The position numbers were made by a program, and so were the translations under genes. From positions 1 through 64,000 of IMG/VR virus record IMGVR_UViG_3300013105_000002: a stretch of 64,000 nucleotides of DNA; one strand, written 5' to 3'. This document shows positions 25,044 through 36,501 of the stretch, one piece after another. This stretch comes from a virus (Duplodnaviria; Heunggongvirae; Uroviricota; Caudoviricetes). Under the pieces are notes generated by a model that was given only the letters and a program-made list of their open reading frames with translations, made no database searches and was not told where the DNA came from. Position 1 is the stretch's first letter. Each line of letters opens with the position of its first letter.

Positions 25044-25453
25044 TGGAGGTATTCCTGTTCTTCGTAATCGTCCTTACGTGTATGGCGGTTGTGAAAATCT
25101 GGAACGAACTCGTGGAGAAGCGTGTGCCCGGTGGCGTGTTCACCAAGGGCAAGCAAGAGCCCGATGTGACTTTTGTTCCACAGTCTGAGGACGAGGAAGC
25201 ATACGTGCCATCAGCGGGCGGTAGGTATGAGGTACGCATGCACCCATGGTCACCTGACTATTCTTCAGAGTTTCGCACTCACGTCAAGTGGATGGTCAAG
25301 GATTTGTCCAAGGGTCAGGTGAGGCAGGGTCACGTCAGGACCGATGCACCTCTCTCCAAGGCAGTTGAGCAGGCAAAGGCTGAGGCTCAGGCTGCTGTCA
25401 GGAGTATGAAGGAAGCCGAGAAGTTCGCTGACGTTCGATACACTTTGGACTAA
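25043..25453 (+). CDS. membrane-anchored protein
   Basis: RBS GGGAGG + TAATG overlap; N-terminal TM. Confidence 0.5.
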   Translation: MEVFLFFVIVLTCMAVVKIWNELVEKRVPGGVFTKGKQEPDVTFVPQSEDEEAYVPSAGGRYEVRMHPWSPDYSSEFRTHVKWMVKDLSKGQVRQGHVRTDAPLSKAVEQAKAEAQAAVRSMKEAEKFADVRYTLD

Positions 25454-25685
25454 TTCGGGTGTGTATGGTCCCCATCGTAAAGGGCGGTGGGGATCAACCA
25501 CTTGGCTTGATTTGGACCAGATGAAGGCTCAGCCTTCAGTCGCCAGATGGCTTTCTAACGGCCTTGAAAATAGAACAGTGCATCGACAGACCCTAGGCAC
25601 TCGTGCTTATTTTAGCGGGGGTGTGCAGCAGGGTGTACAATGGATATAGGGGCATAGCCCTAGTTCATCGTAAAGGAATGAGAGC

Positions 25686-25814
25686 ATGAAAACAGCACTC
25701 AGAATCGTCGGCGGTATGTGGGCGGTGGCTGTGTCAATCAATGCCATCGTGTCCTTGGTAGAGTATCAGACAGGAAGTCCGAATACTCTGAAGTGGGCAA
25801 GACCATGGAGTTGA
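25686..25814 (+). CDS. small membrane peptide (42 aa)
   Basis: RBS AAGGAA; hydrophobic. Confidence 0.3.
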   Translation: MKTALRIVGGMWAVAVSINAIVSLVEYQTGSPNTLKWARPWS

Positions 25815-25847
25815 TTGAAAAGATGAACTTGTGGTACGGTCTGGAAT

Positions 25848-26060
25848 ATGATCGAGAAGGCTATGAAGAAGAATACGAATATGAAGACGCAGGAAGAACT
25901 GCTAGAGGAACTTCTAGAAGAGGCAAGACAGGCGCGCCGGTACGCAGAAGAACTACGCAACTCATCAACAAGAATCATCGAACTGATTAGTACAGTGTTT
26001 GAAGACGTTGAAGAGGCCGGTGAGTCGACTGACCCCTCATACAACACCAAAGAAGAGTAA
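25848..26060 (+). CDS. hypothetical coiled-coil acidic protein
   Basis: better third-position GC than overlapping 25805-25990 frame. Confidence 0.35.
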   Translation: MIEKAMKKNTNMKTQEELLEELLEEARQARRYAEELRNSSTRIIELISTVFEDVEEAGESTDPSYNTKEE

Positions 26061-26390
26061 AAAGACATAGTATAGGTATAGAAAACAAAGGTCTAGAGGT
26101 ACAAATGGATACTTCCTTGTACATAACTTGGGACAAAGGCTGAAAAAGAAGGGCCTAGTCGAAGAACAAGCATATTGCTATGAAATGGCGACACCCCATA
26201 TGAAGGCTTTTTAGCGCTAAAATGATGAATAAATCTGCTTTATTGGACCAAAATGAGCCAAAAAGCAGAGATTCGGGCTACAAAATGGCCCAATCGTAAT
26301 GGCTACAGGAAAATTCGGGCTATTTGGGCCTCCATCGTAAAGGGGCCTTCCGATGTGAGAATGGTTTTCATTATTTGAATCCCCAAAGAG

Positions 26391-26445
26391 ATACCCCGGG
26401 GGTATGGTGTTTTCTATACTCTTCTTTGGTATACACTGGGGGTAT
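26391..26445 (+). repeat. two operator-type palindromes without promoter (ATACCCCGGGGGTAT 26391-26405; ATACACTGGGGGTAT 26431-26445)
   Basis: same ATACCC-N-GGGTAT family as downstream array. Confidence 0.6.
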
Positions 26446-26462
26446 ACACCTACCGGCGATAG

Positions 26463-26514
26463 ATACCCCGAAGGGTATCTATGGACTTGACACGTCTTTA
26501 CAGACTGATAGTCT
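26463..26514 (+). promoter_or_regulatory. operator + promoter P1 (leaderless gene 26521)
   Basis: op 26463-26478; -35 TTGACA 26487-26492; -10 TAGTCT 26509-26514; ATG 6 nt downstream. Confidence 0.6.
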
Positions 26515-26520
26515 TCTCTC

Positions 26521-27102
26521 ATGACAACAAACACCACGCCCCACACGAACCACATCCTTGCGGCATACCTGCGAGCATCCGAGGACGACCGTGCCTTTGG
26601 TATCGCTTGGTACCCCGCCGCTCGTGCCCTTGCTGAGAATCTTCTACCTGAGGACGTGAGCACCGCCGCAGGTGTTCTTGCTGCCATGTCTCCCATGACG
26701 TCATGGCCCGAGAACGTCAAGCGCGCGACTGTCGCCATCATGGGTGGCAAGGTCTCGCACACTGGCCCGAACGTTGACAAGGTTCTGCGCATCCTGTCCG
26801 GTGAGCACCCGCTCGACGTGCTGTCCGGTCCCAAGACTCGCGCGTTCTACCTCAACATCATGGGAATCGACAGTGACGAGACGGTCACTGTGGACAGACA
26901 CGCTATCGACGTGGCATGCGGTAATGTCCTCTCGGACTCCGACCGTGCCGGTGCCATCCGTGGCAAGGCAGGCTATGGTAAGGTCGCCGGTATGTACCGT
27001 GAGGCTGCAAGCGTTATCGGAATCACCCCGTGTGCCCTACAGGCCGTTGTTTGGGTGTACTGGCGGCGAAACGTTGCTCAGGCTTTCCACGGTGACGCGT
27101 GA
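26521..27102 (+). CDS. hypothetical protein
   Basis: 193-aa GC-rich ORF. Confidence 0.55.
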   Translation: MTTNTTPHTNHILAAYLRASEDDRAFGIAWYPAARALAENLLPEDVSTAAGVLAAMSPMTSWPENVKRATVAIMGGKVSHTGPNVDKVLRILSGEHPLDVLSGPKTRAFYLNIMGIDSDETVTVDRHAIDVACGNVLSDSDRAGAIRGKAGYGKVAGMYREAASVIGITPCALQAVVWVYWRRNVAQAFHGDA

Positions 27103-27234
27103 GGCTTGACACAAAAATCATTGCGGGGCTAGTGATCATGCTTGCCACTAGCCCCGTATGGTTTCCCATAGCGGTATTTTTCTACCTACTAGCACAGTGA
27201 GGTAGGTGGGCGCAAGCCCACCGGCCTTACATTT

Positions 27235-27305
27235 GTACCCCGAGGGTATTAGATACACCGGGGGTATGTGTAGGGCTTGACGCCCGGTAGGTACTCGGGT
27301 AATGT
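27235..27305 (+). promoter_or_regulatory. two operators + promoter P2 (drives ORF-less transcript)
   Basis: ops 27235-27249, 27253-27267; -35 TTGACG 27277-27282; -10 TAATGT 27300-27305. Confidence 0.55.
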
Positions 27306-27311
27306 TGTCCT

Positions 27312-27685
27312 TGTTGGAAGAGACCGAGGCACACAAGCGGTGAGAGTCCGTTATTCCAACGCACTACCGGAGTGGATAGCAAGTCGCTGCTTGGCTTGCA
27401 AGGACGAAACTCCACTAGGGTTGACTTTAAATCAGCCCCTTTGATTTGTGAATAGAGAGAGTCCACGACTCAGACACAAGCCTCTCATGGCGAGCCGTCA
27501 ATGATTTAGACACCACGCTACTAGTGACACGTTCCATGGAACACGTCCACGCCTCTGACGTTCTCTATTAAACGTTGTATCCGAATGCACGCATCCGTGA
27601 TAACATGACCAATGTCTCTCTCTAGGGTAGGTCTGATCAACCTACCGGCCCCGAGCGCAATGCATGGCGCTCGGGGTCTCATATT
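27312..27685 (+). ncRNA. candidate ~375-nt noncoding RNA (ncRNA-1)
   Basis: promoter P2 to strong terminator (ggccccgagcgc/gcgctcggggtc 27647-27678 + U tail); no ORF >11 aa; multiple hairpins incl. GNRA-looped stems. Confidence 0.5.
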
Positions 27686-27694
27686 GTCATCCAT

Positions 27695-27745
27695 ATACAC
27701 TGGGGGTATCTAGACTCTTGACATGAGCGCTGGTAGGCATAGACT
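27695..27745 (+). promoter_or_regulatory. operator + promoter P3
   Basis: op ATACACTGGGGGTAT 27695-27709; -35 TTGACA 27718-27723; -10 TAGACT 27740-27745. Confidence 0.55.
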
Positions 27746-27751
27746 GAGGAT

Positions 27752-27949
27752 ATGAAATCACCACGAAGAGCAATCATCTACAGCCACGGGCTACGCCCTG
27801 CATTTGACAAGCGCAAGTACAGCGATGACAAGAATCAGGCGCGGCGTGCTGCGAAGGGCGGTGTGCCTTGTGAGAAGTGTGGCAGGGTATACAAAGACCC
27901 CAACAGAAAGCACAACTCCGATCCCAAGAACAAGACGCCATGCCTTTGA
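27752..27949 (+). CDS. hypothetical basic protein
   Basis: 65 aa; CEKCG pair. Confidence 0.5.
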   Translation: MKSPRRAIIYSHGLRPAFDKRKYSDDKNQARRAAKGGVPCEKCGRVYKDPNRKHNSDPKNKTPCL

Positions 27950-27963
27950 GCATGGCCCCCTAT

Positions 27964-27993
27964 ATATCCCTAGGGTATGTCAGAGACTTGACA
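27964..27993 (+). promoter_or_regulatory. operator + -35 of promoter P4
   Basis: op ATATCCCTAGGGTAT 27964-27978; -35 TTGACA 27988-27993; -10 unclear. Confidence 0.4.
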
Positions 27994-28022
27994 GCCCTGA
28001 AGACACATGAGAGAGTATGCAT

Positions 28023-28178
28023 ATGAACAGGAACAAGCGGGCGCAGGCCCCCAAGCGAATCAACCGTCATGACTCTGCAATCGGTGACAAGCGCCGTGCG
28101 CGAAGTGGTCCGGTCATCCGAGGACAGCGTTTCGACAGGAACGATTTCCGCAACCAGAGCATGCGGGGTGAGTGGTGA
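28023..28178 (+). CDS. small basic protein (51 aa)
   Basis: ATG directly downstream of P4. Confidence 0.35.
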   Translation: MNRNKRAQAPKRINRHDSAIGDKRRARSGPVIRGQRFDRNDFRNQSMRGEW

Positions 28179-28336
28179 AGACTTTCGATCCTCTAGAGGT
28201 GACCCTCGTTTATGTCGATGTTCTTGGTACTGAGTACCGACAGAGTGCTGCCGACATTGTGGAAGTTGGAACCCTCATCGATCCTGACACCGGCGACGAT
28301 ATGGAACTCGTGCGAGTCGAAGTTCCCAACAACTAG
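28175..28336 (+). CDS. small acidic protein (53 aa)
   Basis: GTGA overlap; ends before next operator. Confidence 0.35.
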   Translation: MKTFDPLEVTLVYVDVLGTEYRQSAADIVEVGTLIDPDTGDDMELVRVEVPNN

Positions 28337-28366
28337 CAGATTGGCCCTTCGGGGTCAAGCCCCAAT

Positions 28367-28447
28367 ATACCCTGAGTGTATGTCTTGGAGGTATATACCC
28401 TAGGGGTACCAAACCGTATTGACACACCCCCGGCATCCCTGTAATGT
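28367..28447 (+). promoter_or_regulatory. two operators + promoter P5
   Basis: ops 28367-28381, 28395-28409; -35 TTGACA 28419-28424; -10 TAATGT 28442-28447. Confidence 0.55.
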
Positions 28448-28453
28448 TTGAGT

Positions 28454-28550
28454 TGTTGGAGAGAGCAACGGTGAACCAAAGAGTGTGCTTCAAGTCTGGC
28501 ACCGGATTGGGAAAGGGCACTCTCTCCAACTCAGAAAGTTTCTTAGCACA
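28454..28550 (+). ncRNA. structured RNA element (ncRNA-2 or long 5' leader of Lsr2-like gene)
   Basis: 5' TTGTTGGAGAGAG pairs with downstream CTCTCTCCAAC; 5' end paralogous to ncRNA-1; no ORF. Confidence 0.4.
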
Positions 28551-28555
28551 ATCGC

Positions 28556-28584
28556 TTGACACTCTGGTCTACATGGATTAGAGT
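28556..28584 (+). promoter_or_regulatory. promoter P6 (no operator) TTGACA-17-TAGAGT
   Basis: -35 28556-28561, -10 28579-28584; RBS GAAAGGA then ATG 28639. Confidence 0.5.
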
Positions 28585-28638
28585 ACGTAGTACCGGGAAA
28601 GAGACACACGGTCTCTCCCAAACGAAAGGACAACCATC

Positions 28639-29025
28639 ATGGCTTCCAAGCGCATCGCCAACCCGACCGAGGTCCGCACGTGGGCTGCCGCCAACCTCGC
28701 CACCATCGACGGGCTCCCCGAGGGCTACCGCCTCGGTGACCGGGGTCAGTTCCCGCCCGCCGTCATCACCGCCTTCAACAAGGCGCACAAGAACGTCAAG
28801 TACGTGCGTGGCGCGTTCGTCAACAAGACGGCGGTCAAGTTCACCCGCGTGACCGACAAGGGCCGCAAGGTGCCCGGTGTGGCTCACATCGACACCACGA
28901 AGGTCCGTGAGGCTGCCCGTGAGGCCGGTCTGGCGCTCCCGTCCAAGGGCCGTCTTCCGCAGGCCGTGAAGGTCGCCTACGCGCAGGGTCCGGACGCCCT
29001 GAAGGCGCTTGCCGCCACGGTCTGA
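28639..29025 (+). CDS. Lsr2-like DNA-binding protein with two tandem Lsr2-type C-terminal domains
   Basis: VRTWAAANL..LGDRGQFPPAVITAF and VREAAREAGLALPSKGRLPQAVKVAY resemble Lsr2 DBD (RGRIPADVIDAY). Confidence 0.65.
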   Translation: MASKRIANPTEVRTWAAANLATIDGLPEGYRLGDRGQFPPAVITAFNKAHKNVKYVRGAFVNKTAVKFTRVTDKGRKVPGVAHIDTTKVREAAREAGLALPSKGRLPQAVKVAYAQGPDALKALAATV

Positions 29026-29033
29026 AGGCCGCA

Positions 29034-29057
29034 GGGCCTCCCCTCCGGGGGAGGCCC
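29034..29057 (+). terminator. hairpin terminator
   Basis: gggcctcccc tcc ggggaggccc. Confidence 0.55.
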
Positions 29058-29075
29058 TAGCCTTTCGTCTATCAC

Positions 29076-29128
29076 ATACCCCAAGGGTATCCCATCGGAG
29101 TTGACAGGCTACTGTGAGCGTGTAGACT
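29076..29128 (+). promoter_or_regulatory. operator + promoter P7
   Basis: op ATACCCCAAGGGTAT 29076-29090; -35 TTGACA 29101-29106; -10 TAGACT 29123-29128. Confidence 0.6.
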
Positions 29129-29160
29129 GAACCTATCAACCCACGACATTGGAGGAACCA

Positions 29161-29586
29161 ATGAGCAAGCACTACCCCGGAACTCCCAAGGCATGGGCCG
29201 CCGAGCGCGGTCTCTGTGGCACGGGACGTGGACGCCCGCCCAAGGCTGCCATGGATGCCATTGCGGCTGCCATCGCTGACGGTTGGACGTTCGGCGGTGG
29301 GTCGGTGGTGGTGAACAAGTCCGCTGAGCCCACGGGGCCGGTGGTGGAGAAGCCCAAGGACGACAGCCCCAAGGGTGAGGCTGAAGGCGTGAACGTCTAC
29401 GCTGACGCGTTCTACCGCTATGACCGTGAGCAGAAATTCTACTATGAGCATGAGGGCAAGCGTCACGAGTGCTCTGGTCGCACGGCTTGCATGGGCTGTG
29501 GATACAGTCTCATTGGACACACGTGCAACGAAATGGTAGGCTTGACCAAGCACGGACAGAAAGTCATCAAGCCGCTGGGAGAGTGA
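29161..29586 (+). CDS. protein with N-terminal Lsr2-type DNA-binding motif and C-terminal Cys cluster
   Basis: RBS GGAGG; KAWAAERG..GRGRPPKAAMDAIAAA; C-terminal HECSGRTACMGCG. Confidence 0.55.
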   Translation: MSKHYPGTPKAWAAERGLCGTGRGRPPKAAMDAIAAAIADGWTFGGGSVVVNKSAEPTGPVVEKPKDDSPKGEAEGVNVYADAFYRYDREQKFYYEHEGKRHECSGRTACMGCGYSLIGHTCNEMVGLTKHGQKVIKPLGE

Positions 29587-29589
29587 CAT

Positions 29590-29862
29590 ATGGCACGCAT
29601 GAGCATTGAACAGAAACTCGCTGACAAGGTGGTGGATGCCACTCTGAGAGCAGACTTCGATGCGCCTCGGTTTGCCTACATCATGAACCGTTGTGGATGG
29701 AAGATTCAGGAAGTTCTGTTTCAGGTGGTGCTCGGGATGATCCGTCACTGGGCTATTGACCTAGAGACGGACAACACCAAGGGTGGAGCCGATGAGTATT
29801 ACCGGCTGACCATCAAGGCGAAAATCCTGCAGGATGCCATCGACCGTAACAAAATCGAGTGA
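29590..29862 (+). CDS. hypothetical protein
   Basis: 90-aa ORF. Confidence 0.5.
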   Translation: MARMSIEQKLADKVVDATLRADFDAPRFAYIMNRCGWKIQEVLFQVVLGMIRHWAIDLETDNTKGGADEYYRLTIKAKILQDAIDRNKIE

Positions 29863-29911
29863 GATTAGGGAGTCATCGTAAGAGGTGGCTCCCTACCTCA
29901 TTGGGGTATGC

Positions 29912-29990
29912 ATACCCTTGGGGTATTTGTATTGATACATACCCCGGGGGTATTGTCAGGGCTTGACGGATGACTCTGAGGTGATAGTCT
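29912..29990 (+). promoter_or_regulatory. operators + promoter P8 (leaderless)
   Basis: ops 29912-29926, 29939-29953 (plus inverted copy 29903-29917); -35 TTGACG 29963-29968; -10 TAGTCT 29985-29990; ATG 6 nt later. Confidence 0.6.
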
Positions 29991-29996
29991 TTAGCC

Positions 29997-30509
29997 ATGA
30001 ACCTCACAGACGCACAGATGCTCGCACGCACGGCTCTCGACGCCCACGGTCTCACCGACAAGGGTTGGCGAGTCGAGTGGGACAATGCCAAGAGGCGCAA
30101 CGGCTCTGCCTCATCCTCTGCTCGTGTCATCACCCTGTCGGCACCGCTGACGCACCTGAAGACACCTGAAGAGATGCGTCAGACCATTGGTCACGAAATC
30201 GCTCACGCCCTTGTTGGTACCCAGCACGGACACGGGCCGGTGTGGAAGGCCAAGATGCGGGAGTTGGGCCTAGTCGTGTCCACTACGGCAGTCCTCTCGG
30301 AAGAGACACGCGGCCAGATTGCCACGCTGAGGAACTACACCCTCACGTGCGTGGTGAACGGCAAGAGTCTCGGACACCTTGACAGGATCGTCAAGCAGCG
30401 CAAGGTCAGGCGCGGGGGCGGGTATGTCCTACGTACCTATGGCGCTCGTGTCTGCAAGTGCCACGGGGAGCCTGTCCTCTACAACGGCAAGTCATGGGAC
30501 GATATCTGA
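29997..30509 (+). CDS. SprT-like zinc metallopeptidase
   Basis: GHEIAHAL (HExxH) + downstream H/G; C-terminal CKCHG zinc ribbon. Confidence 0.7.
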   Translation: MNLTDAQMLARTALDAHGLTDKGWRVEWDNAKRRNGSASSSARVITLSAPLTHLKTPEEMRQTIGHEIAHALVGTQHGHGPVWKAKMRELGLVVSTTAVLSEETRGQIATLRNYTLTCVVNGKSLGHLDRIVKQRKVRRGGGYVLRTYGARVCKCHGEPVLYNGKSWDDI

Positions 30510-30538
30510 AAGGCAAGGCCCTACGGGGTCTAACCGTT

Positions 30539-30590
30539 ATACCCTGAGGGTAATTCCACCATTGACACCCGCGCCGGTAGGTGGTTGAAT
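30539..30590 (+). promoter_or_regulatory. operator + promoter P9
   Basis: op 30539-30553; -35 TTGACA 30562-30567; -10 TTGAAT 30585-30590. Confidence 0.5.
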
Positions 30591-30622
30591 AGCACTATCA
30601 ACCAAACGTCCTAGGAGGACAC

Positions 30623-30805
30623 ATGAAGACGGTAACTCTCTACTTCGTTGCACAGCCCGAGCCTGATGGCAGCACGCCGAACCCGAGCCTCTTCTACCTG
30701 AACGAAGACTACGACTTCGTGTCTCAGGAAGTTCCTCAGGGTGAGCGTGTCTACAGCGTCGGCGCGATCCTCATGGATGACACTGTGGAGGAAGTTGCCA
30801 ACTGA
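30623..30805 (+). CDS. hypothetical protein
   Basis: RBS AGGAGG; 60 aa. Confidence 0.5.
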   Translation: MKTVTLYFVAQPEPDGSTPNPSLFYLNEDYDFVSQEVPQGERVYSVGAILMDDTVEEVAN

Positions 30806-30825
30806 GCCCTTCGGGGTTTAGCCAC

Positions 30826-30875
30826 ATACCCTGAGGGTATGTCTCACTTGACAAGCGCCGGTGGATGCGTAGACT
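30826..30875 (+). promoter_or_regulatory. operator + promoter P10 (leaderless)
   Basis: op ATACCCTGAGGGTAT 30826-30840; -35 30848-30853; -10 TAGACT 30870-30875. Confidence 0.6.
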
Positions 30876-30881
30876 AGAGGC

Positions 30882-31097
30882 ATGGACATGGAAATCATTG
30901 ACACAGTACAGGCCCACACGTTGGAGCCGGGAGACACCATCGAGTACATCGATGACGAGGGACGCCGCTCACTTCAAGAAATCAAGAGCGCCGAAGACCT
31001 CGGAGACACCATCCGTGTGCAGTTGGAAGACTACGACGACGTAGACCTCTATGCTGATGGTGAGCAGAACATCTACGGATATCCTGCCGAAGACTGA
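30882..31097 (+). CDS. hypothetical acidic protein
   Basis: 71-aa ORF. Confidence 0.5.
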   Translation: MDMEIIDTVQAHTLEPGDTIEYIDDEGRRSLQEIKSAEDLGDTIRVQLEDYDDVDLYADGEQNIYGYPAED

Positions 31098-31162
31098 CAG
31101 GAACGCGGGGGAGTCGGAGAAATTCGGCTCCCCCAAACCTGTATCGTAAAGCCCATGAACAT

Positions 31163-31263
31163 TTCCCGAGGGTATCTACATACCCCAAGGGTATAGGATC
31201 ACACAAAACAAATACCCCATGAGGTATGGATGGGCTTGACAGGTCTCTGGGAACTGATAGTCT
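31163..31263 (+). promoter_or_regulatory. three operators + promoter P11 (leaderless)
   Basis: ops 31163-31175, 31180-31194, 31212-31227; -35 TTGACA 31236-31241; -10 TAGTCT 31258-31263. Confidence 0.6.
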
Positions 31264-31269
31264 TTACCT

Positions 31270-31635
31270 ATGAACGAACGAGACAAGCCGATGACCGGCG
31301 AGCACGCAGCAATCATCTTCGCGCAGGGCCTCACCGCCAAGTTCGCAGACAGCGAGTGGCCGTACAACCCTGAGTTCTCCGCTGATCTTTCGGGCAAGAA
31401 GTACATCCGAATCGTCAATGAGGGCAACCCTCACCCCGAGGACCAGACAACGAACCTGTACCGTCGTCAGCGCTCGTGCCACGCGTACGTGGACCGCGAG
31501 ACGGGCGAGGTGTACAAGTCCTCAGGATGGAAGGGTGGACCGGCCAAGGTCAACGGCAAGGCCGATGCACGATACCCCAACGTTTGGGAGGCTCTGGTCA
31601 AGGCTGACCGGAACGGAGGATACCTGTACAAGTAA
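31270..31635 (+). CDS. hypothetical protein
   Basis: 121-aa ORF. Confidence 0.55.
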   Translation: MNERDKPMTGEHAAIIFAQGLTAKFADSEWPYNPEFSADLSGKKYIRIVNEGNPHPEDQTTNLYRRQRSCHAYVDRETGEVYKSSGWKGGPAKVNGKADARYPNVWEALVKADRNGGYLYK

Positions 31636-31653
31636 CAGGTGTCAAGCAGGGAA

Positions 31654-31767
31654 ATACCCTTCGGGGTATTTTCTTGTTCTTACCCTATACCCTAGGGGTA
31701 TGCCTTGAAACGAAATACCCTTGGGGTATGGGATGGTGTTGACAGCCCTGCTCCCATGGTGTTTACT
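31654..31767 (+). promoter_or_regulatory. three operators + promoter P12 (leaderless)
   Basis: ops 31654-31669, 31687-31701, 31715-31729; -35 TTGACA 31739-31744; -10 TTTACT 31762-31767. Confidence 0.55.
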
Positions 31768-31773
31768 AGAGAT

Positions 31774-32037
31774 ATGAACAAGCAGACGCGCAAAGCGTAC
31801 CTCACTGACCTTGGTGCCCGTATCTACAATGCGGACACCTCCACCGAACTCATCGTGATCGCCACGGACATGGCAGATGCCGCGTCCATGGGTCGCTCGG
31901 AGACATGGAAGGGTGCTTGCACGATGGCAGGACGACGCACCCTCGCCAAGTTCAACATCGGTGTCCCGGTGCCATTCAAGGACGTTGGTGCCGTGGTCCA
32001 GCAAGGCTACGATGCCATGGTGGCAGCCAACAAGTAA
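31774..32037 (+). CDS. hypothetical protein
   Basis: ORF 31705 start overlaps promoter; ATG 31774 used. Confidence 0.5.
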   Translation: MNKQTRKAYLTDLGARIYNADTSTELIVIATDMADAASMGRSETWKGACTMAGRRTLAKFNIGVPVPFKDVGAVVQQGYDAMVAANK

Positions 32038-32042
32038 GCCCG

Positions 32043-32064
32043 CTAGGCCCCTCCGGGGGCCTAG
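32043..32064 (+). terminator. hairpin terminator
   Basis: ctaggcccc tccg ggggcctag. Confidence 0.5.
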
Positions 32065-32079
32065 CCTTATTAGCATGAG

Positions 32080-32131
32080 ATACACCGGGGGTATGTTCTA
32101 GGCTTGACACACACTACCAGACTGATAGTAT
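32080..32131 (+). promoter_or_regulatory. operator + promoter P13 (leaderless)
   Basis: op ATACACCGGGGGTAT 32080-32094; -35 32104-32109; -10 TAGTAT 32126-32131. Confidence 0.6.
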
Positions 32132-32137
32132 TTACCC

Positions 32138-32371
32138 ATGAGCCAAATGACATTCCACGAGCAGTTCGGTGAAGTTTCTGTCGCACAACTCCGTGCATAC
32201 AAGGCGCACAACGTCTCTCAGTCCGACCACGACTCCCTCGCCACGTTCTACTCCGAGGGCGGCCACGAGTCCATCACAAAGGCGGTGAAAGACCCACGCA
32301 ACCACGTGCCCGGAACGAGGTTGTTCTCGTGGCACACGTGGTACTCCAACACCGAGCGTTACAACTGGTGA
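32138..32371 (+). CDS. hypothetical protein
   Basis: 77-aa ORF. Confidence 0.5.
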   Translation: MSQMTFHEQFGEVSVAQLRAYKAHNVSQSDHDSLATFYSEGGHESITKAVKDPRNHVPGTRLFSWHTWYSNTERYNW

Positions 32372-32406
32372 ACACACCGGCCCTACGGGGTCCGTGTGTA
32401 TACCCC

Positions 32407-32458
32407 GGGGGTAATTAGAGTGTTGACCACCAGCGCCGGTAGGTGTAGAGTAAAGGTA
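32407..32458 (+). promoter_or_regulatory. operator + promoter P14 (drives ORF-less transcript)
   Basis: op 32407-32421; -35 TTGACC 32430-32435; -10 TAGAGT 32453-32458. Confidence 0.5.
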
Positions 32459-32464
32459 TTGAAG

Positions 32465-32606
32465 GGGATGGAAGGACGCAAGGTGCAAATCCCTGCTAGC
32501 AATTGAACCCTTCGACGCAAGACATGTATGTGACAGTGCATGCCATAGAGACTAGTCATCTCGCCGGGGCCTGAGCCTGACTAACTCAGGTCTCTTGCTT
32601 TTGCCA
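32465..32606 (+). ncRNA. candidate ~140-nt noncoding RNA (ncRNA-3)
   Basis: no + strand ORF; ends in hairpin cctgag...ctcagg + tctcttgcttttg. Confidence 0.4.
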
Positions 32607-32611
32607 TACAC

Positions 32612-32758
32612 ATACCCTAGGGGTAAATTCGGCTCCTAGAATCGCTTATCGTAAACGGTCTGTTCGCTATCCCCCAAGGGTGCACATACCCTCGTGGGAT
32701 TTGATATACCCTTGGGGTATGCCAGACAGGTTGACACGTCCCGGCATGTGAGTAGACT
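32612..32758 (+). promoter_or_regulatory. operators + promoter P15
   Basis: ops 32612-32626, 32686-32700, 32706-32720; -35 32731-32736; -10 TAGACT 32753-32758; leader with RBS GAGGAAA. Confidence 0.55.
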
Positions 32759-32795
32759 TGGACCATCAGCCAAACCGAGTAGTGAGGAAACTACA

Positions 32796-33065
32796 ATGGC
32801 ACGTCAACTCCGAGTCATCGCCCGCGAGATCGTGAAGGACTACGCAGACAAGGGCAAGCCGGTCACGCCGTTTGCCAAGCCGTACGTGGACGCGATGCTC
32901 ACGATGGACAGCGTGGCCGACACCTACGGAGCCGAGAGTGGCGAGTACGTCGTCCTCTACGGGCTGCACAACCTCTCCGGATGGCGAGGCGAGAAGGCAC
33001 GCGAGGTGAAGGCCGAACTGAAGGCTCTTGTCTCCGAGCATCGCAGGGCGAACCCGCGCCGGTGA
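32796..33065 (+). CDS. hypothetical protein
   Basis: ATG 32796 after RBS; 89 aa. Confidence 0.5.
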   Translation: MARQLRVIAREIVKDYADKGKPVTPFAKPYVDAMLTMDSVADTYGAESGEYVVLYGLHNLSGWRGEKAREVKAELKALVSEHRRANPRR

Positions 33066-33070
33066 GTGGA

Positions 33071-33090
33071 GGGGACTTCGGTCCCCTTTT
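33071..33090 (+). terminator. rho-independent terminator
   Basis: ggggac ttcg gtcccc tttt. Confidence 0.6.
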
Positions 33091-33104
33091 CTCATACCCT
33101 GCCA

Positions 33105-33156
33105 ATACCCCGAGGGTATAGTTTGGTGTTGACAGGTCGGGCGGTAGGAGTAGACT
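33105..33156 (+). promoter_or_regulatory. operator + promoter P16 (leaderless)
   Basis: op ATACCCCGAGGGTAT 33105-33119; -35 33129-33134; -10 TAGACT 33151-33156. Confidence 0.6.
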
Positions 33157-33162
33157 GAGAAC

Positions 33163-33375
33163 ATGAAAACGATCAATGGATGCGCAGTCATCGCCCACCG
33201 TCCCTACGGCAACACCCTTCCGTCTGAGGGTTTCGTGATCCTCGCAGTCAAGACGCTCGGTGACTCTTACGAGTACATCACTGCTGTTGTCTCCACGCTC
33301 GATGACAGGGAGTGGTTCTGGGGTCACTACATCACCTCGCTAGAGGAAGCCACGTCCGACTACTTCTCTCGCTGA
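33163..33375 (+). CDS. hypothetical protein
   Basis: 70-aa ORF. Confidence 0.5.
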   Translation: MKTINGCAVIAHRPYGNTLPSEGFVILAVKTLGDSYEYITAVVSTLDDREWFWGHYITSLEEATSDYFSR

Positions 33376-33405
33376 GAGGGGAGGCCCCACGGGGTCTTTC
33401 CATAT

Positions 33406-33457
33406 ATACCCTGAGGGTATGTCAACGCATTGACAGCCCTCCAATCCTTGATAGGAT
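33406..33457 (+). promoter_or_regulatory. operator + promoter P17 (leaderless)
   Basis: op 33406-33420; -35 33430-33435; -10 TAGGAT 33452-33457. Confidence 0.55.
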
Positions 33458-33463
33458 GTAGTC

Positions 33464-33631
33464 ATGTACTACGACATGGACGACCACCGTTGCTTCGACT
33501 GTGATGGGCGCTACTGCCCACCGGGCCAGTGCCTCCGTACCGAGACCTCCGTGTGGGTCGTGGGTCACGGTTGGACCGACCCCGAGACTGCCAAGGGCTT
33601 TGAGGCTCTGGGAAGGACGGTGCAGTGGTGA
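33464..33631 (+). CDS. small Cys-rich protein (55 aa)
   Basis: CFDCDGRYCPPGQC; below track cutoff. Confidence 0.4.
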   Translation: MYYDMDDHRCFDCDGRYCPPGQCLRTETSVWVVGHGWTDPETAKGFEALGRTVQW

Positions 33632-33649
33632 GGCTTCGGCCTTACACAT

Positions 33650-33701
33650 ATCCCCTAAGGGTATGTCTAGGTGTTGACACCTGACCTGTAGGGTGTAGAC
33701 T
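33650..33701 (+). promoter_or_regulatory. operator + promoter P18
   Basis: op ATCCCCTAAGGGTAT 33650-33664; -35 33674-33679; -10 TAGACT 33696-33701. Confidence 0.55.
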
Positions 33702-33708
33702 TAGGGAC

Positions 33709-33918
33709 ATGAAGACGATCACAGTGACCATGACCGGCGAGGCTTTCGAGTCCTACAGCGTGGACGGGGCCTACTTCCCCGAGTTCAAGAACGACGAGAG
33801 CGGCGAGTGGGATGCCATTCCTGCCGTCTTCGTCGGACGCCCCATCATGCACCGTGGACAGGTGGGAGACGCAACGATCCTCTACGGGCTCGACGTTCGG
33901 AAGGTGACAATGCAGTAA
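33709..33918 (+). CDS. hypothetical protein
   Basis: 69-aa ORF. Confidence 0.5.
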   Translation: MKTITVTMTGEAFESYSVDGAYFPEFKNDESGEWDAIPAVFVGRPIMHRGQVGDATILYGLDVRKVTMQ

Positions 33919-33950
33919 AGGGCAGGCCCCTCCGGGGGTCACTCCCATAT

Positions 33951-34003
33951 ATACCCTCGGGGTAAGTCTGAGACTTGACATGCATGCCCTAGGGGTACAT
34001 AAT
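33951..34003 (+). promoter_or_regulatory. operator + promoter P19 (leaderless); half-operator inside spacer
   Basis: op 33951-33965; -35 33975-33980; -10 CATAAT 33998-34003. Confidence 0.5.
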
Positions 34004-34009
34004 TGGAAC

Positions 34010-34213
34010 ATGAACACGATCCGAGACCTCATCCTCACCGCCAACGGTGGCAGTATGCACACGGCCACCCTGAACACGCTCACCATGCTTGTGTTCGCGG
34101 TCCTCTTCATCGCTGCCGGTGTTGCTTGCGCCTACGTCGTGGCAGCCCTCACGGCACAGCACAAGGCTCACATGCACACCGACAAGGTGACCGTCATCAC
34201 CGACGCACAGTGA
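34010..34213 (+). CDS. small membrane protein
   Basis: ATG 34010; one TM helix. Confidence 0.5.
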   Translation: MNTIRDLILTANGGSMHTATLNTLTMLVFAVLFIAAGVACAYVVAALTAQHKAHMHTDKVTVITDAQ

Positions 34214-34229
34214 CCCCGGAAGGGGCTAT

Positions 34230-34281
34230 ATACCCTTAGGGTATGTTTGAGGTTTGACACAATGCCCCAAACTGATATGCT
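34230..34281 (+). promoter_or_regulatory. operator + promoter P20
   Basis: op ATACCCTTAGGGTAT 34230-34244; -35 34254-34259; -10 TATGCT 34276-34281. Confidence 0.55.
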
Positions 34282-34309
34282 TGTCCTACCAACCACGGAA
34301 GGGGACACA

Positions 34310-34516
34310 ATGTCTCGCAAGGATTACGAAGCGCTCGCGGCAGTCATCGCGGGTGAGGTGGCATGTGCGGCAGGTAACAAGGACAAACTGCGCACGTCCT
34401 CCAACATCGCTCGGAGCATGGCTGACGTGTTCCACCGTGGAAACGAGCGTTTCGACCGTGTGCGCTTTTACAAGGCTTGCGGACTGGACATGACGGGCGG
34501 TTTCCCCGACGTGTGA
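34310..34516 (+). CDS. hypothetical protein
   Basis: RBS GGAAGGGGA + ATG 34310. Confidence 0.5.
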   Translation: MSRKDYEALAAVIAGEVACAAGNKDKLRTSSNIARSMADVFHRGNERFDRVRFYKACGLDMTGGFPDV

Positions 34517-34521
34517 GAGCG

Positions 34522-34545
34522 TGGCCCCTACGGGGGCCATTGCTT
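34522..34545 (+). terminator. rho-independent terminator
   Basis: tggcccc tacg ggggcca + ttgctttt. Confidence 0.6.
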
Positions 34546-34556
34546 TTACCTAGCAT

Positions 34557-34608
34557 ATACCCTCGGGGTATATATAGGCTTGACAGTGCACCTAGGGTGT
34601 GATTGAAT
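34557..34608 (+). promoter_or_regulatory. operator + promoter P21
   Basis: op ATACCCTCGGGGTAT 34557-34571; -35 34580-34585; -10 TTGAAT 34603-34608. Confidence 0.55.
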
Positions 34609-34644
34609 TGTCTTCTCAACCAGAACACCTCCCAAGGAGACACC

Positions 34645-34785
34645 ATGATCGTCGAAATCCGCAACAACGGTCTCATCATCGACTACGTGGTAATGCCTAA
34701 CTTCCGAGCGGCTGTCATGTTCACCCAGAGATTCAACCGAGTCTCCACAAACAAGGGTTTCACCCAGAGGGCGGTGATCGCCTGA
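34645..34785 (+). CDS. hypothetical protein (46 aa)
   Basis: RBS AAGGAGA + ATG 34645. Confidence 0.4.
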   Translation: MIVEIRNNGLIIDYVVMPNFRAAVMFTQRFNRVSTNKGFTQRAVIA

Positions 34786-34806
34786 GCCCTTCGGGGCTTT
34801 CCCCAT

Positions 34807-34858
34807 ATACACTCGGGGTATATCAATGGCTTGACACGAGGCCGGTATTTGATATGCT
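34807..34858 (+). promoter_or_regulatory. operator + promoter P22 (drives ORF-less transcript)
   Basis: op ATACACTCGGGGTAT 34807-34821; -35 34831-34836; -10 TATGCT 34853-34858. Confidence 0.55.
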
Positions 34859-34864
34859 TGTTAT

Positions 34865-34968
34865 ATGAGGTCGGAGGGAGAGCGGACCAAAAAAGTCTCA
34901 CCGTCAGAGAAGACGCAAATCGCACAGTGAGTCTAGGCTGCAAGGGTCTAGGCTCACTTGTTTGTCTA
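34865..34968 (+). ncRNA. candidate ~105-nt noncoding RNA (ncRNA-4)
   Basis: no ORF; 3' hairpin gtgagtctaggc...ctaggctcac 34927-34957 + TTGTTTG. Confidence 0.45.
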
Positions 34969-34972
34969 TAGA

Positions 34973-35023
34973 ATACCCTAGGGGTATACAAGTGGCTTGA
35001 CACATGCCGCCGATCTGATAGAG
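34973..35023 (+). promoter_or_regulatory. operator + promoter P23 (leaderless)
   Basis: op ATACCCTAGGGTAT 34973-34986; -35 34996-35001; -10 TAGAGT 35018-35023. Confidence 0.55.
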
Positions 35024-35029
35024 TTCTCA

Positions 35030-35113
35030 CATGGGAATCATCATCGTGTCACTGCTCGCAGCAATCTTTTGGCGCATCGCCATCAGCCCGATCATCGACA
35101 GTTTCAACAAGTA
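35030..35113 (+). CDS. tiny hydrophobic peptide (27 aa)
   Basis: ATG 6 nt after -10; followed by strong terminator. Confidence 0.25.
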
Positions 35114-35120
35114 GGGCGTG

Positions 35121-35148
35121 AAAGGCCCGGAGAAATCCGGGCCTTTTG
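35121..35148 (+). terminator. rho-independent terminator
   Basis: aaggcccgga gaaa tccgggcctt + ttgcg. Confidence 0.65.
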
Positions 35149-35175
35149 CGTGTCATCGTAAAAGGCCCAATTGGT

Positions 35176-35190
35176 ATACCCCAAGGGTAC
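35176..35190 (+). repeat. orphan operator copy ATACCCCAAGGGTAC
   Basis: no -35 downstream; sits before bidirectional terminator. Confidence 0.5.
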
Positions 35191-35206
35191 AAAACGGGCA
35201 TGAGAA

Positions 35207-35235
35207 GACCCTAGGTGCGCCGCTCACCTAGGGTC
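35207..35235. terminator. bidirectional terminator (perfect 11-bp stem)
   Basis: gaccctaggtg cgccgct cacctagggtc between convergent + and - genes. Confidence 0.6.
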
Positions 35236-35245
35236 TCTCTGGGTC

Positions 35246-35398
35246 TCAGGCCATGGACACCTCACGCTTCCACGTGGAGCGCTCACGGCGCTTGGCGATC
35301 CGTCGTGCCATCTTACGGGCGCTGGGCGCGTCACCGCAGCAAGAGCAGTCACGACCACCGGGGCCGTAGGGGCAGGACTTGCCAATCATGCGAGCCAT
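35246..35398 (-). CDS. small basic Cys-rich protein (50 aa), only minus-strand gene in the early array
   Basis: MARMIGKSCPYGPGGRDCSCCGD...RRIAKRRERSTWKR; own promoter. Confidence 0.45.
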   Translation of the reverse strand: MARMIGKSCPYGPGGRDCSCCGDAPSARKMARRIAKRRERSTWKREVSMA

Positions 35399-35437
35399 GA
35401 TTTTCTCTCTCTGTAGTTGTTTTTTCTTGCTGGGATA

Positions 35438-35467
35438 AACATATGACAGATGGCCGGTGGTGTCAAG
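35438..35467 (-). promoter_or_regulatory. minus-strand promoter CTTGACA-17-TATGTT
   Basis: revcomp of 35461-35467 = -35; revcomp of 35438-35443 = -10; divergent from P25. Confidence 0.5.
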
Positions 35468-35475
35468 CCGATCCA

Positions 35476-35555
35476 ATACCCCAAGGGTAAATCATCAGAC
35501 AGATACCCCTAGGGTATGTTTTTGGCTTGACGATGTTTCCGCATTCCCGTAGTGT
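35476..35555 (+). promoter_or_regulatory. two operators + promoter P25
   Basis: ops 35476-35490, 35503-35517; -35 TTGACG 35527-35532; -10 TAGTGT 35550-35555. Confidence 0.5.
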
Positions 35556-35601
35556 TTCTCTTGTCAGGAGGAAACGCCTCCCCCACACAAAAGGATTTGA
35601 A

Positions 35602-35895
35602 ATGTCGCTCTCCCTCGCCGGAACCAAGTCCACGGTTGTCTCGCCCGCCTCGCACGGCATCGACAACTACGGCCCCGAGGTGCAGGCAATCACCTTCAAG
35701 TACAACGGGGTCGCCTACACGATCAACCGTCGTGGCAACTCCAACGTCAAGGGCTTCCACTCCTTCCGGAACAACACGTACACGGTCACCAACGGCACCG
35801 ACCGTGTGTCGAACATGATCGTCAACCGTTTCGACTTCGTGTCCATCCTCTACACTGACGGTCGAATCGAGTCGAACGACTACACCGCTCGATGA
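35602..35895 (+). CDS. hypothetical protein
   Basis: RBS AAAGGA + ATG 35602; 97 aa. Confidence 0.5.
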   Translation: MSLSLAGTKSTVVSPASHGIDNYGPEVQAITFKYNGVAYTINRRGNSNVKGFHSFRNNTYTVTNGTDRVSNMIVNRFDFVSILYTDGRIESNDYTAR

Positions 35896-35900
35896 GAGGC

Positions 35901-35918
35901 AGGCCCCTTCGGGGGCCT
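35901..35918 (+). terminator. hairpin terminator
   Basis: aggcccc ttcg ggggcct. Confidence 0.55.
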
Positions 35919-35940
35919 AGCCTTTCGCCCATGACATACC

Positions 35941-35955
35941 CTCGGGGTATGTAGT
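35941..35955 (+). repeat. operator copy ATACCCTCGGGGTAT (weak promoter downstream)
   Basis: -35-like TTGTGT 35964-35969 only. Confidence 0.4.
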
Positions 35956-35993
35956 CTATTGTGTTACTGTCCGGTAGGGTATAGGGTGGTCAC

Positions 35994-36155
35994 ATGACCA
36001 AATACAAGTATGAGATTTTCCACGCTGTCAGTGGCGGCTTTTTCACGGGTCACCTTCACACGGTGTACTCCAACTCCAACGATGCCAACCTGTGGTGCGA
36101 GACGTTCGAACGTCAGGGCTACACGGGCCTCTACATGATCCGCAGGGAGGTCTAG
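35994..36155 (+). CDS. hypothetical protein (53 aa)
   Basis: + strand ORF; overlapping minus-strand ORF 35964-36239 judged spurious. Confidence 0.4.
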   Translation: MTKYKYEIFHAVSGGFFTGHLHTVYSNSNDANLWCETFERQGYTGLYMIRREV

Positions 36156-36183
36156 CACAAAGACCCTTCGGGGTCCATTAACA

Positions 36184-36236
36184 ATTACCCTCGGGGTATG
36201 TGTAGGGCTTGACATGATCCCCAGAACTGATAAACT
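36184..36236 (+). promoter_or_regulatory. operator + promoter P26 (leaderless)
   Basis: op 36184-36199; -35 36209-36214; -10 TAAACT 36231-36236. Confidence 0.55.
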
Positions 36237-36242
36237 CATGCC

Positions 36243-36461: not shown

Positions 36462-36466
36462 GGATA

Positions 36467-36487: not shown

Positions 36488-36501
36488 CTTTACCCTACCG
36501 C

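Follow-up and report, generated by a model that had tools for sequence, protein, structure and literature searches.

A candidate structured non-coding RNA gene in an early-gene array of an uncultured actinophage, a relative of the BE1 Streptomyces phages

The DNA analyzed here comprises positions 1 to 64,000 of the IMG/VR record IMGVR_UViG_3300013105_000002, assigned to the class Caudoviricetes; this whole 64,000-nt stretch is referred to below as the window. An element designated nc1 was delimited at 27312-27688 on the + strand, and comparison with its homologs in related contigs indicates that it is very probably a genuine structured non-coding RNA gene. The first-pass annotation of the window had described 27312-27685 as a promoter-to-terminator unit and candidate non-coding RNA. 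That description stands insofar as the homologs keep the promoter, the sequence blocks and the compensatory helices and share no reading frame, whereas the paralog and the proper terminator that formed part of it were not borne out. The wider account, according to which nc1 gives rise to a stand-alone, stable, trans-acting structured early RNA, is favored with little more than even confidence.

Promoter, boundaries and reading frames of nc1

The promoter of nc1 (27277..27305, + strand) is composed of a -35 hexamer TTGACG (27277-27282), a 17-nt spacer and a -10 hexamer TAATGT (27300-27305), the last at exactly the position given in the first-pass annotation. The TTGACA-like -35 element, the -10 element of the form TANNNT, a spacing within 16-18 nt and a conserved position correspond to promoters of the sigma-70 type (actinobacterial sigma-A-like). 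Both hexamers and the distance between them are kept in contigs L053, L052, L050 and L046 (L numbers denote contigs compared with the window), despite differing spacer sequence, and because of this conservation in the homologs the promoter was judged likely to be real. It was not listed by a strict consensus scan because TAATGT matches three of the six positions of TATAAT; the scan used the Escherichia coli consensus. Two regulatory palindromes of the form ATACCC-N3-GGGTAT (27235-27249 and 27253-27267) stand just upstream, ending 9 nt 5' of the -35 hexamer. The earlier description of the promoter as operator-controlled is an interpretation: since the palindromes lie 5' of the -35 hexamer (center ~-53 from the predicted start), they may serve either as an activator site or as a repressor operator. 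The only hairpin with a GCAA tetraloop, a feature previously attributed to the unit, was found at 27205-27222, that is, upstream of the promoter and outside the unit.

Based on the +7/+8 spacing at leaderless promoters, the start of nc1 is placed at 27312/27313, and the predicted transcript (27312..27688, + strand) would be ~375 nt long, with its 3' end just after the 3' strand of helix P1, which is described below. The hairpin at 27647-27678, previously taken for a strong intrinsic terminator, does have an exact 12-bp GC stem, with an 8-nt loop; however, it is nested in P1 and no proper U tract follows it. The tail, UCUCAUAUUGUC, is weakly U-rich (4 U in the first 8 bases), and its first five bases are the conserved P1 3' strand. 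Thus, the GC-rich hairpin of an intrinsic terminator is present at the 3' end of nc1 and the U run is lacking, and a consensus terminator scan does not list the site. The next module begins immediately afterwards with its own palindrome and promoter (27695..27745, + strand), followed by a leaderless 65-aa gene that starts at 27752.

The + strand has one ATG open reading frame (ORF), 33 codons long (27612-27713), along with ORFs of 27-55 codons that begin with GTG or TTG. On the - strand there are ORFs of 36-79 codons, and gene calling on the source contig had accepted one of these (27427-27537). The earlier statement that only 5-11-codon ORFs occur in this interval was therefore incorrect, although none of the frames is conserved. 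These ORFs would be the basis for regarding nc1 as a decayed protein-coding gene or for taking a small ORF as its real product, an explanation that we find barely credible: every homolog carries stops in all six frames (1-9 per frame), L053 lacks the start AUG of the 33-codon ORF, the longest + strand ORF among the homologs (58 codons) is not shared, and the indels are not multiples of three. Conservation follows blocks and helices, not codon periodicity, and, with no frame kept open, this argues that nc1 is not coding. A conserved small ORF, which the first-pass annotation had named, if accompanied by a ribosome-profiling signal, as a finding contrary to an RNA gene, does not appear in the homologs. 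The + strand of nc1 folds better than shuffled sequences (z = -2.96; none of 100 shuffles equals it), and the corresponding value for the - strand is z = -2.48. A promoter-like site on the - strand (27452-27424) was considered and dropped, its spacing not being conserved in L053.

Homologs of nc1 and their distribution

Related contigs were found via homologs of DUF7178, the gene for which adjoins nc1 on its upstream side, and via a scan of Joint Genome Institute (JGI) metagenomes with the palindrome-promoter pattern, after which nc1 was located by profile search. It was present in L053 at full length and with the same long 5' domain, in L052 and L050, in divergent form in L046/L047, and as a fragment in L040, a related 1-kb contig from the metagenome scan that starts inside the 3' part of nc1. 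The scan otherwise gave mostly single chance hits, together with the related contigs L004, L009 and L013, and among its hits only L040 had part of nc1. The identity of the nc1 core to that of the window was 58-77%, which is comparable to the 62-82% of the adjoining DUF7178 gene. In contigs L048, L049, L051 and L055-L060, all reached via DUF7178 homologs, the profile did not find nc1.

Every nc1-positive contig has its own palindrome and promoter (TTGAC-N17-TA(A/T)TGT) at nc1, and in every homolog the palindrome and promoter of the next module begin no more than ~25 nt after it. The neighbors vary, being a 65-aa gene, a 53-aa Arg-rich gene, an Lsr2-like gene or a SprT-like gene. An own promoter combined with changing neighbors indicates that nc1 is an independent module, which is gained, lost and moved like the adjoining small protein genes.

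Among 50,697 cultured-phage records, a blastn search (11-base words) with 27100-28650 gave no match at 1e-5, and a search with 27440-27690 at E = 10 gave only chance hits. In IMG/VR, the DUF7178 and Lsr2-like neighbor proteins gave no close relative, the palindrome-promoter pattern gave one unrelated hit, and two nc1-specific patterns gave none. In GTDB genomes, an nc1 pattern had a single chance hit (a Brevinema metagenome-assembled genome), and the terminal repeat of the BE1 phage Peebs contained no nc1 homolog. As far as these searches reach, nc1 is confined to a few uncultured phages from soil, the relatives of which are large Streptomyces phages.

Conserved fold of nc1

As judged from the aligned homologs, nc1 is composed of a variable 5' domain (51-140 nt), which starts with a terminal hairpin, and a constant core, the length of which is 240-252 nt in all lineages, so that the folded RNA would measure ~300-380 nt. 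The terminal hairpin (27313..27360, + strand, as are all the elements below; GUUGGAA/UUCCAAC) is likely to be a 5'-end stabilizer, and similar UUGG...CCAA hairpins are found at the 5' ends of other transcripts of the same promoter class. The remainder of the 5' domain in the window (27361..27446) includes hairpin A (27371-27416) and hairpin B (27418-27438, loop CUUUAAA); this part is present only in the window and in L053 and is absent from L052, L050 and L046. The core opens with the 5' strands of helices P1 and P2 (27447..27461), namely, P1 UGUGA (27447-27451), the linker A27452 and P2 UAGAGAGAG (27453-27461), in the block (A)GUGAAUAG. These are followed by block C (27472..27485, AGACACAAGCCUCU), which contains the first of two invariant CCUCU motifs, by hairpin D (27486..27503, loop GAGCC), and by hairpin E (27526..27547), which is centered on the perfect palindrome GUUCCAUGGAAC (27531-27542), the ccatgg-centered palindrome already noted in the first-pass annotation. 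Block F (27549..27556, ACGCCUCU) contains the second invariant CCUCU and is predicted to be mostly unpaired, and blocks G and H (27572..27606) include hairpin P6 (UGUAUC 27576-27581 / GAUAACA 27599-27605), the loop of which carries GCAUCCGU. The P2 3' strand, CUCUCUCUA (27616..27624), precedes hairpin P3 (27626..27646; GGUAGGU/ACCUACC, 7-nt loop CUGAUCA at 27633-27639), which had also been recognized earlier, and hairpin P4 (27647..27678; strands 27647-27658/27667-27678), i.e., the GC-rich hairpin discussed above. The core is closed by the P1 3' strand (27679..27683), which is UCAUA in the window and UCACU in all other homologs, and a short tail follows. The blocks conserved among the homologs are (A)GUGAAUAG, UGACACAAGCCUCU, GAGCCGUCA, ACCUCU..ACGAUC, ACGUUGUAUCC, GCAUCCGUGAUAACAU and CUAGGGU.

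Structure and covariation analysis across related phages, which had been proposed as a check, supports P1-P4 through compensatory changes. RNAalifold recovered these helices from a plain MAFFT alignment, with 12 pairs changed on both sides, and the minimum-energy single-sequence folds of the window, L053 and L052 gave the same P1-P4. P1 pairs AGUGA with UCACU (window variant UGUGA/UCAUA); P2, UAGAGAG/CUCUCUA, corresponds to UAGUGUG/CACACUA in L050 and to UAGUGG/CCACUA in L046; P3, GGUAGGU/ACCUACC, corresponds to UGUGAGU/ACUCACA in L046; and in P4, the stem sequence of which differs by lineage, 10 of the 12 pairs are changed on both sides among the homologs. Compensatory changes also occur in hairpin D, where 100% of cells are paired and three of five pairs are changed on both sides. 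Hairpin E is present in all homologs, and the P6 stem is invariant, its loop being cut to 5 nt (CAGAU) in L046. MAFFT misaligns L046/L047 in the F-H region. In a hand-registered alignment with 33 pairs, 98.8% of cells were paired and 18 of the 33 pairs were changed on both sides, counts that lean towards structure because the registration was made to the proposed helices; none of 500 shuffles reached the observed value, and partners slid by 1-3 columns paired in 35-48%. The G-U cells fall on the + strand, in agreement with the promoter direction. Thus, compensatory helices were found together with the absence of a conserved reading frame, the combination that characterizes structured non-coding RNAs in general.

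The P1 3' strand directly follows P4, and the helices of the junction are joined by 0-1 nt, so that the supposed terminator hairpin would be an arm of a four-way junction, with the 3' end of the RNA held in P1. This arrangement bears on the proposal that nc1 is a cis-acting leader, that is, the 5' part of a long early transcript that modifies RNA polymerase or termination for the downstream genes, as a put/nut-like processive antitermination element or an attenuator, and permits read-through of the many small GC hairpins of the array. HK022 put and lambda nut are hairpin RNAs located immediately 3' of early phage promoters. Such a role would be consistent with the nc1 hairpin tail, which has no canonical U tract, with the general lack of U tracts after module-end hairpins in this phage group, and with the position of nc1 as the second module in a co-oriented array of at least 20 promoter units; in addition, a conserved Arg-rich 53-aa protein is encoded nearby in all relatives, which, next to a leader, is reminiscent of the lambda N/nut system. 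Nevertheless, we consider a cis-acting leader improbable. A new palindrome and promoter follow the 3' end of nc1 closely in every homolog, with different genes behind them, the P1 3' strand after P4 would yield a closed, end-protected molecule, and relatives with the same array architecture lack nc1. Moreover, put RNAs are ~70 nt, and put and nut elements alike (~70 nt or less) act only in cis on the transcribing polymerase, whereas nc1 is a closed 245-nt multi-junction fold followed by an independent promoter.

P2 encloses an inner domain in which hairpins D, E and P6 are joined by apparently single-stranded blocks, the most conserved of nc1 (GACACAAGCCUCU, ACCUCU..ACGAUC, ACGUUGUAUCC and GCAUCCGUGAUAACAU). 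Several pairings in the inner junction were tried and set aside because they could not be reconciled among the homologs; these were P2c, a pairing of "UACGAU" with either block G or block H, one between CCUCU and the 5' purine tract, and one between the 5' domain and the P6 loop. An arrangement in which the peripheral hairpins (D, E and P4) vary around highly conserved joining strands would suit a ligand-binding or catalytic RNA, with the joining strands of the inner junction forming a pocket or an active site, as in riboswitch aptamers and ribozymes. This seems very unlikely, however, given that the ribozyme and riboswitch models of Rfam yield no match even at E <= 10, that no conserved cleavage-site signature is recognizable, and that there is no expression platform, the downstream gene having its own promoter and differing between homologs.

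The two CCUCU motifs, invariant in all homologs, resemble the CCUCC of the 16S rRNA 3' end, and nc1 could therefore be imagined as a base-pairing regulator, or anti-Shine-Dalgarno mimic, that pairs with the purine-rich ribosome-binding sites of leadered, mostly host, mRNAs. The second motif is predicted to be largely unpaired, and the phage's own early genes are leaderless, with ATG at +7 behind most promoters of the array. We regard this role as decidedly unlikely, since 5 nt are too few for specific targeting and an implausible quantity of RNA would be required to titrate every ribosome-binding site of the host; furthermore, the first motif is predicted to be paired in several homologs, and the conserved blocks have no extended complementarity to the rest of the 64-kb window.

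Palindromic segments and possible self-association

At one position of the core (offset 84-89), each lineage has a perfect palindrome of a different sequence, located in segment E: GUUCCAUGGAAC in the window, GUGGGUACCCAC in L053, CCUAGG in L052, GCCAUGGC in L050 and UCCCAUGGGA in L046. Between the window and its close relative L053, eight of the ten central bases of this segment are replaced, the symmetry remaining perfect and the flanks identical. The P3 loop contains the palindrome UGAUCA in the window and UGUACA in L052 and L050, i.e., a symmetric double change, and this palindrome is off-center from the stem axis. The palindromic segments are weak as monomer hairpins (-3 to -7 kcal/mol) and strong as symmetric duplexes, a trend that any hairpin shows. 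Natural RNA homodimers (PMC12990946) and the ROOL, GOLLD and OLE assemblies (PMC12286853) are usually held together by kissing loops and palindromic pairing.

The maintenance of palindromic loops through sequence turnover in the alignment hints at self-association. That nc1 forms a new class of self-associating phage RNA, at least two copies of which are joined via the E segment and the palindromic P3 loop, is nonetheless considered unlikely. If this were the case, the palindrome sequence might serve as a fast-changing "address", owing to which the RNA of each phage would pair with itself only, and early host takeover would depend on the assembly as the active form, the monomer being inactive in this respect.

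The same palindromes could also be read at the level of DNA, where the CCATGG/GGTACC/CCTAGG-centered and TGATCA/TGTACA sites would bind dimeric proteins, or nc1 would represent an origin or packaging signal, or folded single-stranded DNA. Perfect palindromes of 6-12 bp at the same place in every homolog agree with such an element, as does the fold of the - strand, which also exceeds that of shuffles (z = -2.48). A DNA-level element is, however, highly improbable: P1 and P2 pair segments that are 160-230 nt apart and covary, and recognition of double-stranded DNA needs no such pairing; the G-U cells lie on the + strand; and a dedicated conserved promoter points into nc1. In addition, the off-center position of the P3 loop palindrome implies that it is not part of one larger DNA palindrome, and a far clearer origin-like cluster of nine DnaA-box-like sites lies elsewhere in the window (37620-37728).

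Recurrence of the nc1 5' end at 28454

The sequence TTGTTGGAAGAGA at the 5' end of nc1 recurs as TTGTTGGAGAGAG at 28454, where the first-pass annotation had placed a paralog of the element. The recurrence was confirmed, the shared start TTGTTGGA(A/G)AG being real; however, nc1 and the second unit have nothing in common beyond the promoter and the initial ~13 bases of the transcript, and the nc1 profile found no second copy in the window. The unit concerned (28419..28638, + strand) has a -10 hexamer TAATGT at 28442-28447, a 5' hairpin UUGGAGAGAG/CUCUCUCCAA and a second promoter at 28556-28584, and it is the tandem-promoter 5' untranslated region (UTR) of an Lsr2-like gene (28639-29025), not part of nc1. 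The tandem arrangement at the Lsr2-like gene is kept in L046 and L049, and in L051 the same promoter drives this gene directly through a 55-nt UTR.

The promoter class to which both units belong, TTGAC-N17/18-TA(A/G/T)TGT-N5-TTGT(T/C)(G/A)G, was found in the window at 22667, 27277, 28419, 35527 and 36526, as well as at position 141 of L046 and position 5252 of L055. At 22667 (DUF932), 35527 and 36526, and in relatives, it heads ordinary leadered mRNAs. Transcripts of the TTGT(T/C)(G/A)G class are leadered and typically start with a UUGG/CCAA-closed hairpin, whereas the TAGACT class serves leaderless genes. Thus, a shared promoter, initial transcribed sequence and 5' stabilizer hairpin explain the recurrence at 28454 without duplication of an RNA gene, and the promoter class is one that nc1 shares with ordinary mRNAs.

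Comparison with known RNAs

When the whole window was compared with Rfam 15 (4227 models) at the gathering score, only tRNAs were matched. At E <= 10, nothing was found in 27100-28700, and the five homolog loci gave three unrelated chance-level hits, none in common, so the Rfam scan recommended earlier assigned neither the window unit nor the homologs to a known family. We regard nc1 as a new RNA family, albeit of a general kind that is already known, with no match among the described families. P1-P4 has the topology of a cloverleaf, but a tRNA or tRNA-like identity was rejected: P4 is a stem of 10-12 bp, the loop of which varies, the P3 loop has C instead of a purine at the equivalent of position 37, and neither ARAGORN nor RF00005 hits nc1. 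Group II intron domain V, suggested by GAGCCGU, and P3 as a mimic of an anticodon loop or of the 16S 3' end were dropped as well, because they do not hold in all homologs.

The BE1 Streptomyces phages, which are the nearest cultured relatives, encode a transfer-messenger RNA (tmRNA) (PMC5764925). This RNA is similar to nc1 in size and in having a helix that closes a multi-helix domain near the 3' end. Unlike tmRNA, nc1 has no GGGG 5' end that pairs with the 3' end, its own 5' end pairing locally, and no T-loop, CCA context or tag reading frame; neither ARAGORN nor the tmRNA models of Rfam detected such a gene in the window.

By analogy, the nearest counterpart of nc1 in biology would be the RNA produced from the early promoter Pleft of Cluster A mycobacteriophages, an abundant, stable, toxic non-coding RNA of unknown function (PMC5712189). 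Both are actinophage RNAs assigned to an ORF-less region of a few hundred nucleotides directly 3' of an early promoter with a regulator-binding site. There is no sequence similarity between the two, nor between nc1 and the L5/D29 right-end region (blastn, 50,697 phage records, which should include Cluster A phages). The abundance, stability and toxicity of Pleft RNA were established by experiment and no conserved structure has been reported for it, whereas the structure of nc1 is supported and nc1 is known from sequence alone.

With regard to form, orphan RNAs with several junctions, of the ROOL/GOLLD/raiA type, come closer to nc1 than Pleft RNA does, but nc1 is a member of none of these families. 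ROOL, GOLLD and OLE (and raiA) are large "ornate" RNAs that form RNA-only homo-oligomers by kissing loops or palindromic pairing (PMC12286853, PMC12990946). They share with nc1 a stand-alone, multi-junction character, an unknown function and frequent encoding by phages or prophages; the nc1 core of ~245 nt is smaller, it matches none of them in Rfam even at E <= 10, and its oligomerization is hypothetical. Complex RNA folds that exceed 200 nt and combine several junctions with invariant joining strands are seldom encountered, and past cases have proved to be ribozymes, ribonucleoprotein scaffolds and, recently, RNA-only assemblies.

The prohead RNA (pRNA) of phi29-like phages is the product of an RNA gene with an early promoter and works as a folded RNA; it belongs to the motor that packages DNA in small podophages, the DNA of which is protein-primed. 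As a phage RNA gene with an early promoter and a predicted folded product, nc1 resembles it. The pRNA multimerizes by intermolecular loop-loop pairing (PMC12990946), in which two different loops are paired, whereas the candidate contacts of nc1 are palindromes. Since nc1 is dispensable in close relatives, it would be unlike an essential packaging component such as pRNA, and it has no Rfam match to it.

Source phage and early-gene array

The window is part of a 131,368-bp metagenome contig (ENA ERZ27252505 k141_4075598). It has a G+C content of ~52% and contains seven tRNA genes (ARAGORN), a CCA-adding-enzyme-like gene and genes for NADAR, DUF932 and ThyX. The proteins encoded in the window match best those of BE1 Streptomyces phages, with ribonucleotide reductase reaching 57% identity. 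The BE1 phages have genomes of ~133 kb with 50% G+C and carry terminal repeats of ~11 kb, in each of which there are 20-25 small ORFs, an lsr2-like gene among them (PMC5764925; the annotation of Peebs agrees with regard to the repeats). The source of the window is an uncultured actinophage of ~131 kb related to the BE1 group of Streptomyces phages.

The palindrome ATACCC-N3-GGGTAT occurs at 42 sites in the window, compared with 1.2 expected, all of them inside 26391-37634, and most copies end ~9 nt 5' of a TTGACA-N16-TAGACT promoter. At least 20 co-oriented + strand promoter units, each with a palindrome upstream, make up the array in this region, the genes of which include DUF7178, two Lsr2-like proteins and one SprT-like protein; since ATG stands at +7 after most of the promoters, the transcripts would be leaderless. 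In appearance, the array corresponds to an early region for host takeover in a BE1-like phage, and solely by analogy with the BE1 phages it may be a terminal repeat.

Directly 5' of the first palindrome of the array lies a gene-poor stretch (25453-26390), and in L046 a comparable 1.2 kb (2833-4038) contains no called genes; the stretch may mark the boundary of a terminal repeat or the end of the genome, or it may hold another non-coding element. The nine DnaA-box-like sites at the end of the array (37620-37728; TTATCCACA, 0-1 mismatch, both orientations) could be an origin or a DnaA-titrating site. One repeated element, in which a palindrome is followed by AATTCGG...TATCGTAAA, is present at 32612-32660 and 37551-37595, with no promoter after either copy. 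A second ORF-poor promoter unit was found at 32423-32605: the promoter TTGACC-N17-TAGAGT (32423-32451) is followed by ~155 nt with no + strand ORF of more than 23 codons, and the unit ends in a canonical terminator (32575-32591 and a U tract). The z-score of its fold is only -0.67, and no homolog of it was found in the related-phage loci examined.

Gene modules in this phage group end in small UUCG-loop hairpins (GGCCCTTCGGGGTC type), after which no U tract is present, as seen at 28340-28362 and at many sites in L046, L049 and L051, and these hairpins adjoin the next palindrome and promoter. The Arg-rich protein of ~53 aa (MNRNKRAQAPKRINRH...) is encoded at 28017-28178, next to DUF7178 and nc1, and is conserved in all related phages (L046 ~4816-4950, L049 ~1544-1700, L051 ~5725-5890 and L052 from ~2040). 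It has no Pfam or PHROG match, and its amino acid composition recalls that of arginine-rich RNA-binding peptides. Two adjacent genes (28639-29025 and 29161-29586) encode Lsr2-type DNA-binding motifs; the product of the former has two Lsr2_DNA-bd repeats (Pfam, E = 3.5e-12), and that of the latter matches the PHROG entry "Lsr2-like DNA bridging protein". In contig L056 (Ga0502304_4026834), positions 3-5812 mirror 6927-12736, with the same genes in inverted order, which is probably an assembly artifact.

Proposed role and significance of nc1

According to the account favored here, nc1 would be a module consisting of a regulatory palindrome, a sigma-70-type promoter, a product and a GC hairpin, in which the product is an RNA instead of a small protein. 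The RNA would accumulate early in infection as a stable molecule, because its 5' end would lie in the terminal hairpin and its 3' end in P4/P1. The conserved junction strands may then act in trans, most likely binding or sequestering a host or phage protein; that nc1 acts in trans by binding protein is a possibility which we put forward tentatively. The molecule could be a homodimer held together by the self-complementary E segment and the P3 loop, and its role would be that of an accessory host-takeover factor.

Several points weigh against this account. The number of homologs is small (five independent ones and one fragment), and the leaning of the hand-registered pair counts noted above must be taken into account. 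Close relatives with the same gene neighborhood (L048, L049, L051 and L055-L057) lack nc1, which implies that its function is dispensable, accessory rather than essential. The nc1 transcript, its ends and its stability are all inferred from the DNA, and, as the hairpin tail lacks a canonical U tract, read-through into the next gene is possible. P2c and the strands of the inner junction are tentative, and the conserved blocks show no complementary target within the 64-kb window. Finally, the palindromes may have arisen through palindrome evolution at the level of DNA and not through selection for RNA dimerization.

The element is of interest for its location in the early takeover region of a large actinophage genome, for its own regulated promoter, for its modularity, which is like that of accessory protein genes, and because searches of Rfam, cultured-phage genomes and IMG/VR gave no relative. 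Two hypotheses that are cheap to test arise from it, one concerning dimerization through the palindromes and the other the accessible CCUCU motifs. The sole comparable case of a takeover RNA is the Pleft RNA of Cluster A mycobacteriophages, which is abundant, toxic and still unexplained; if expressed as predicted, nc1 would add RNA to the takeover factors of phages in Actinomycetota.

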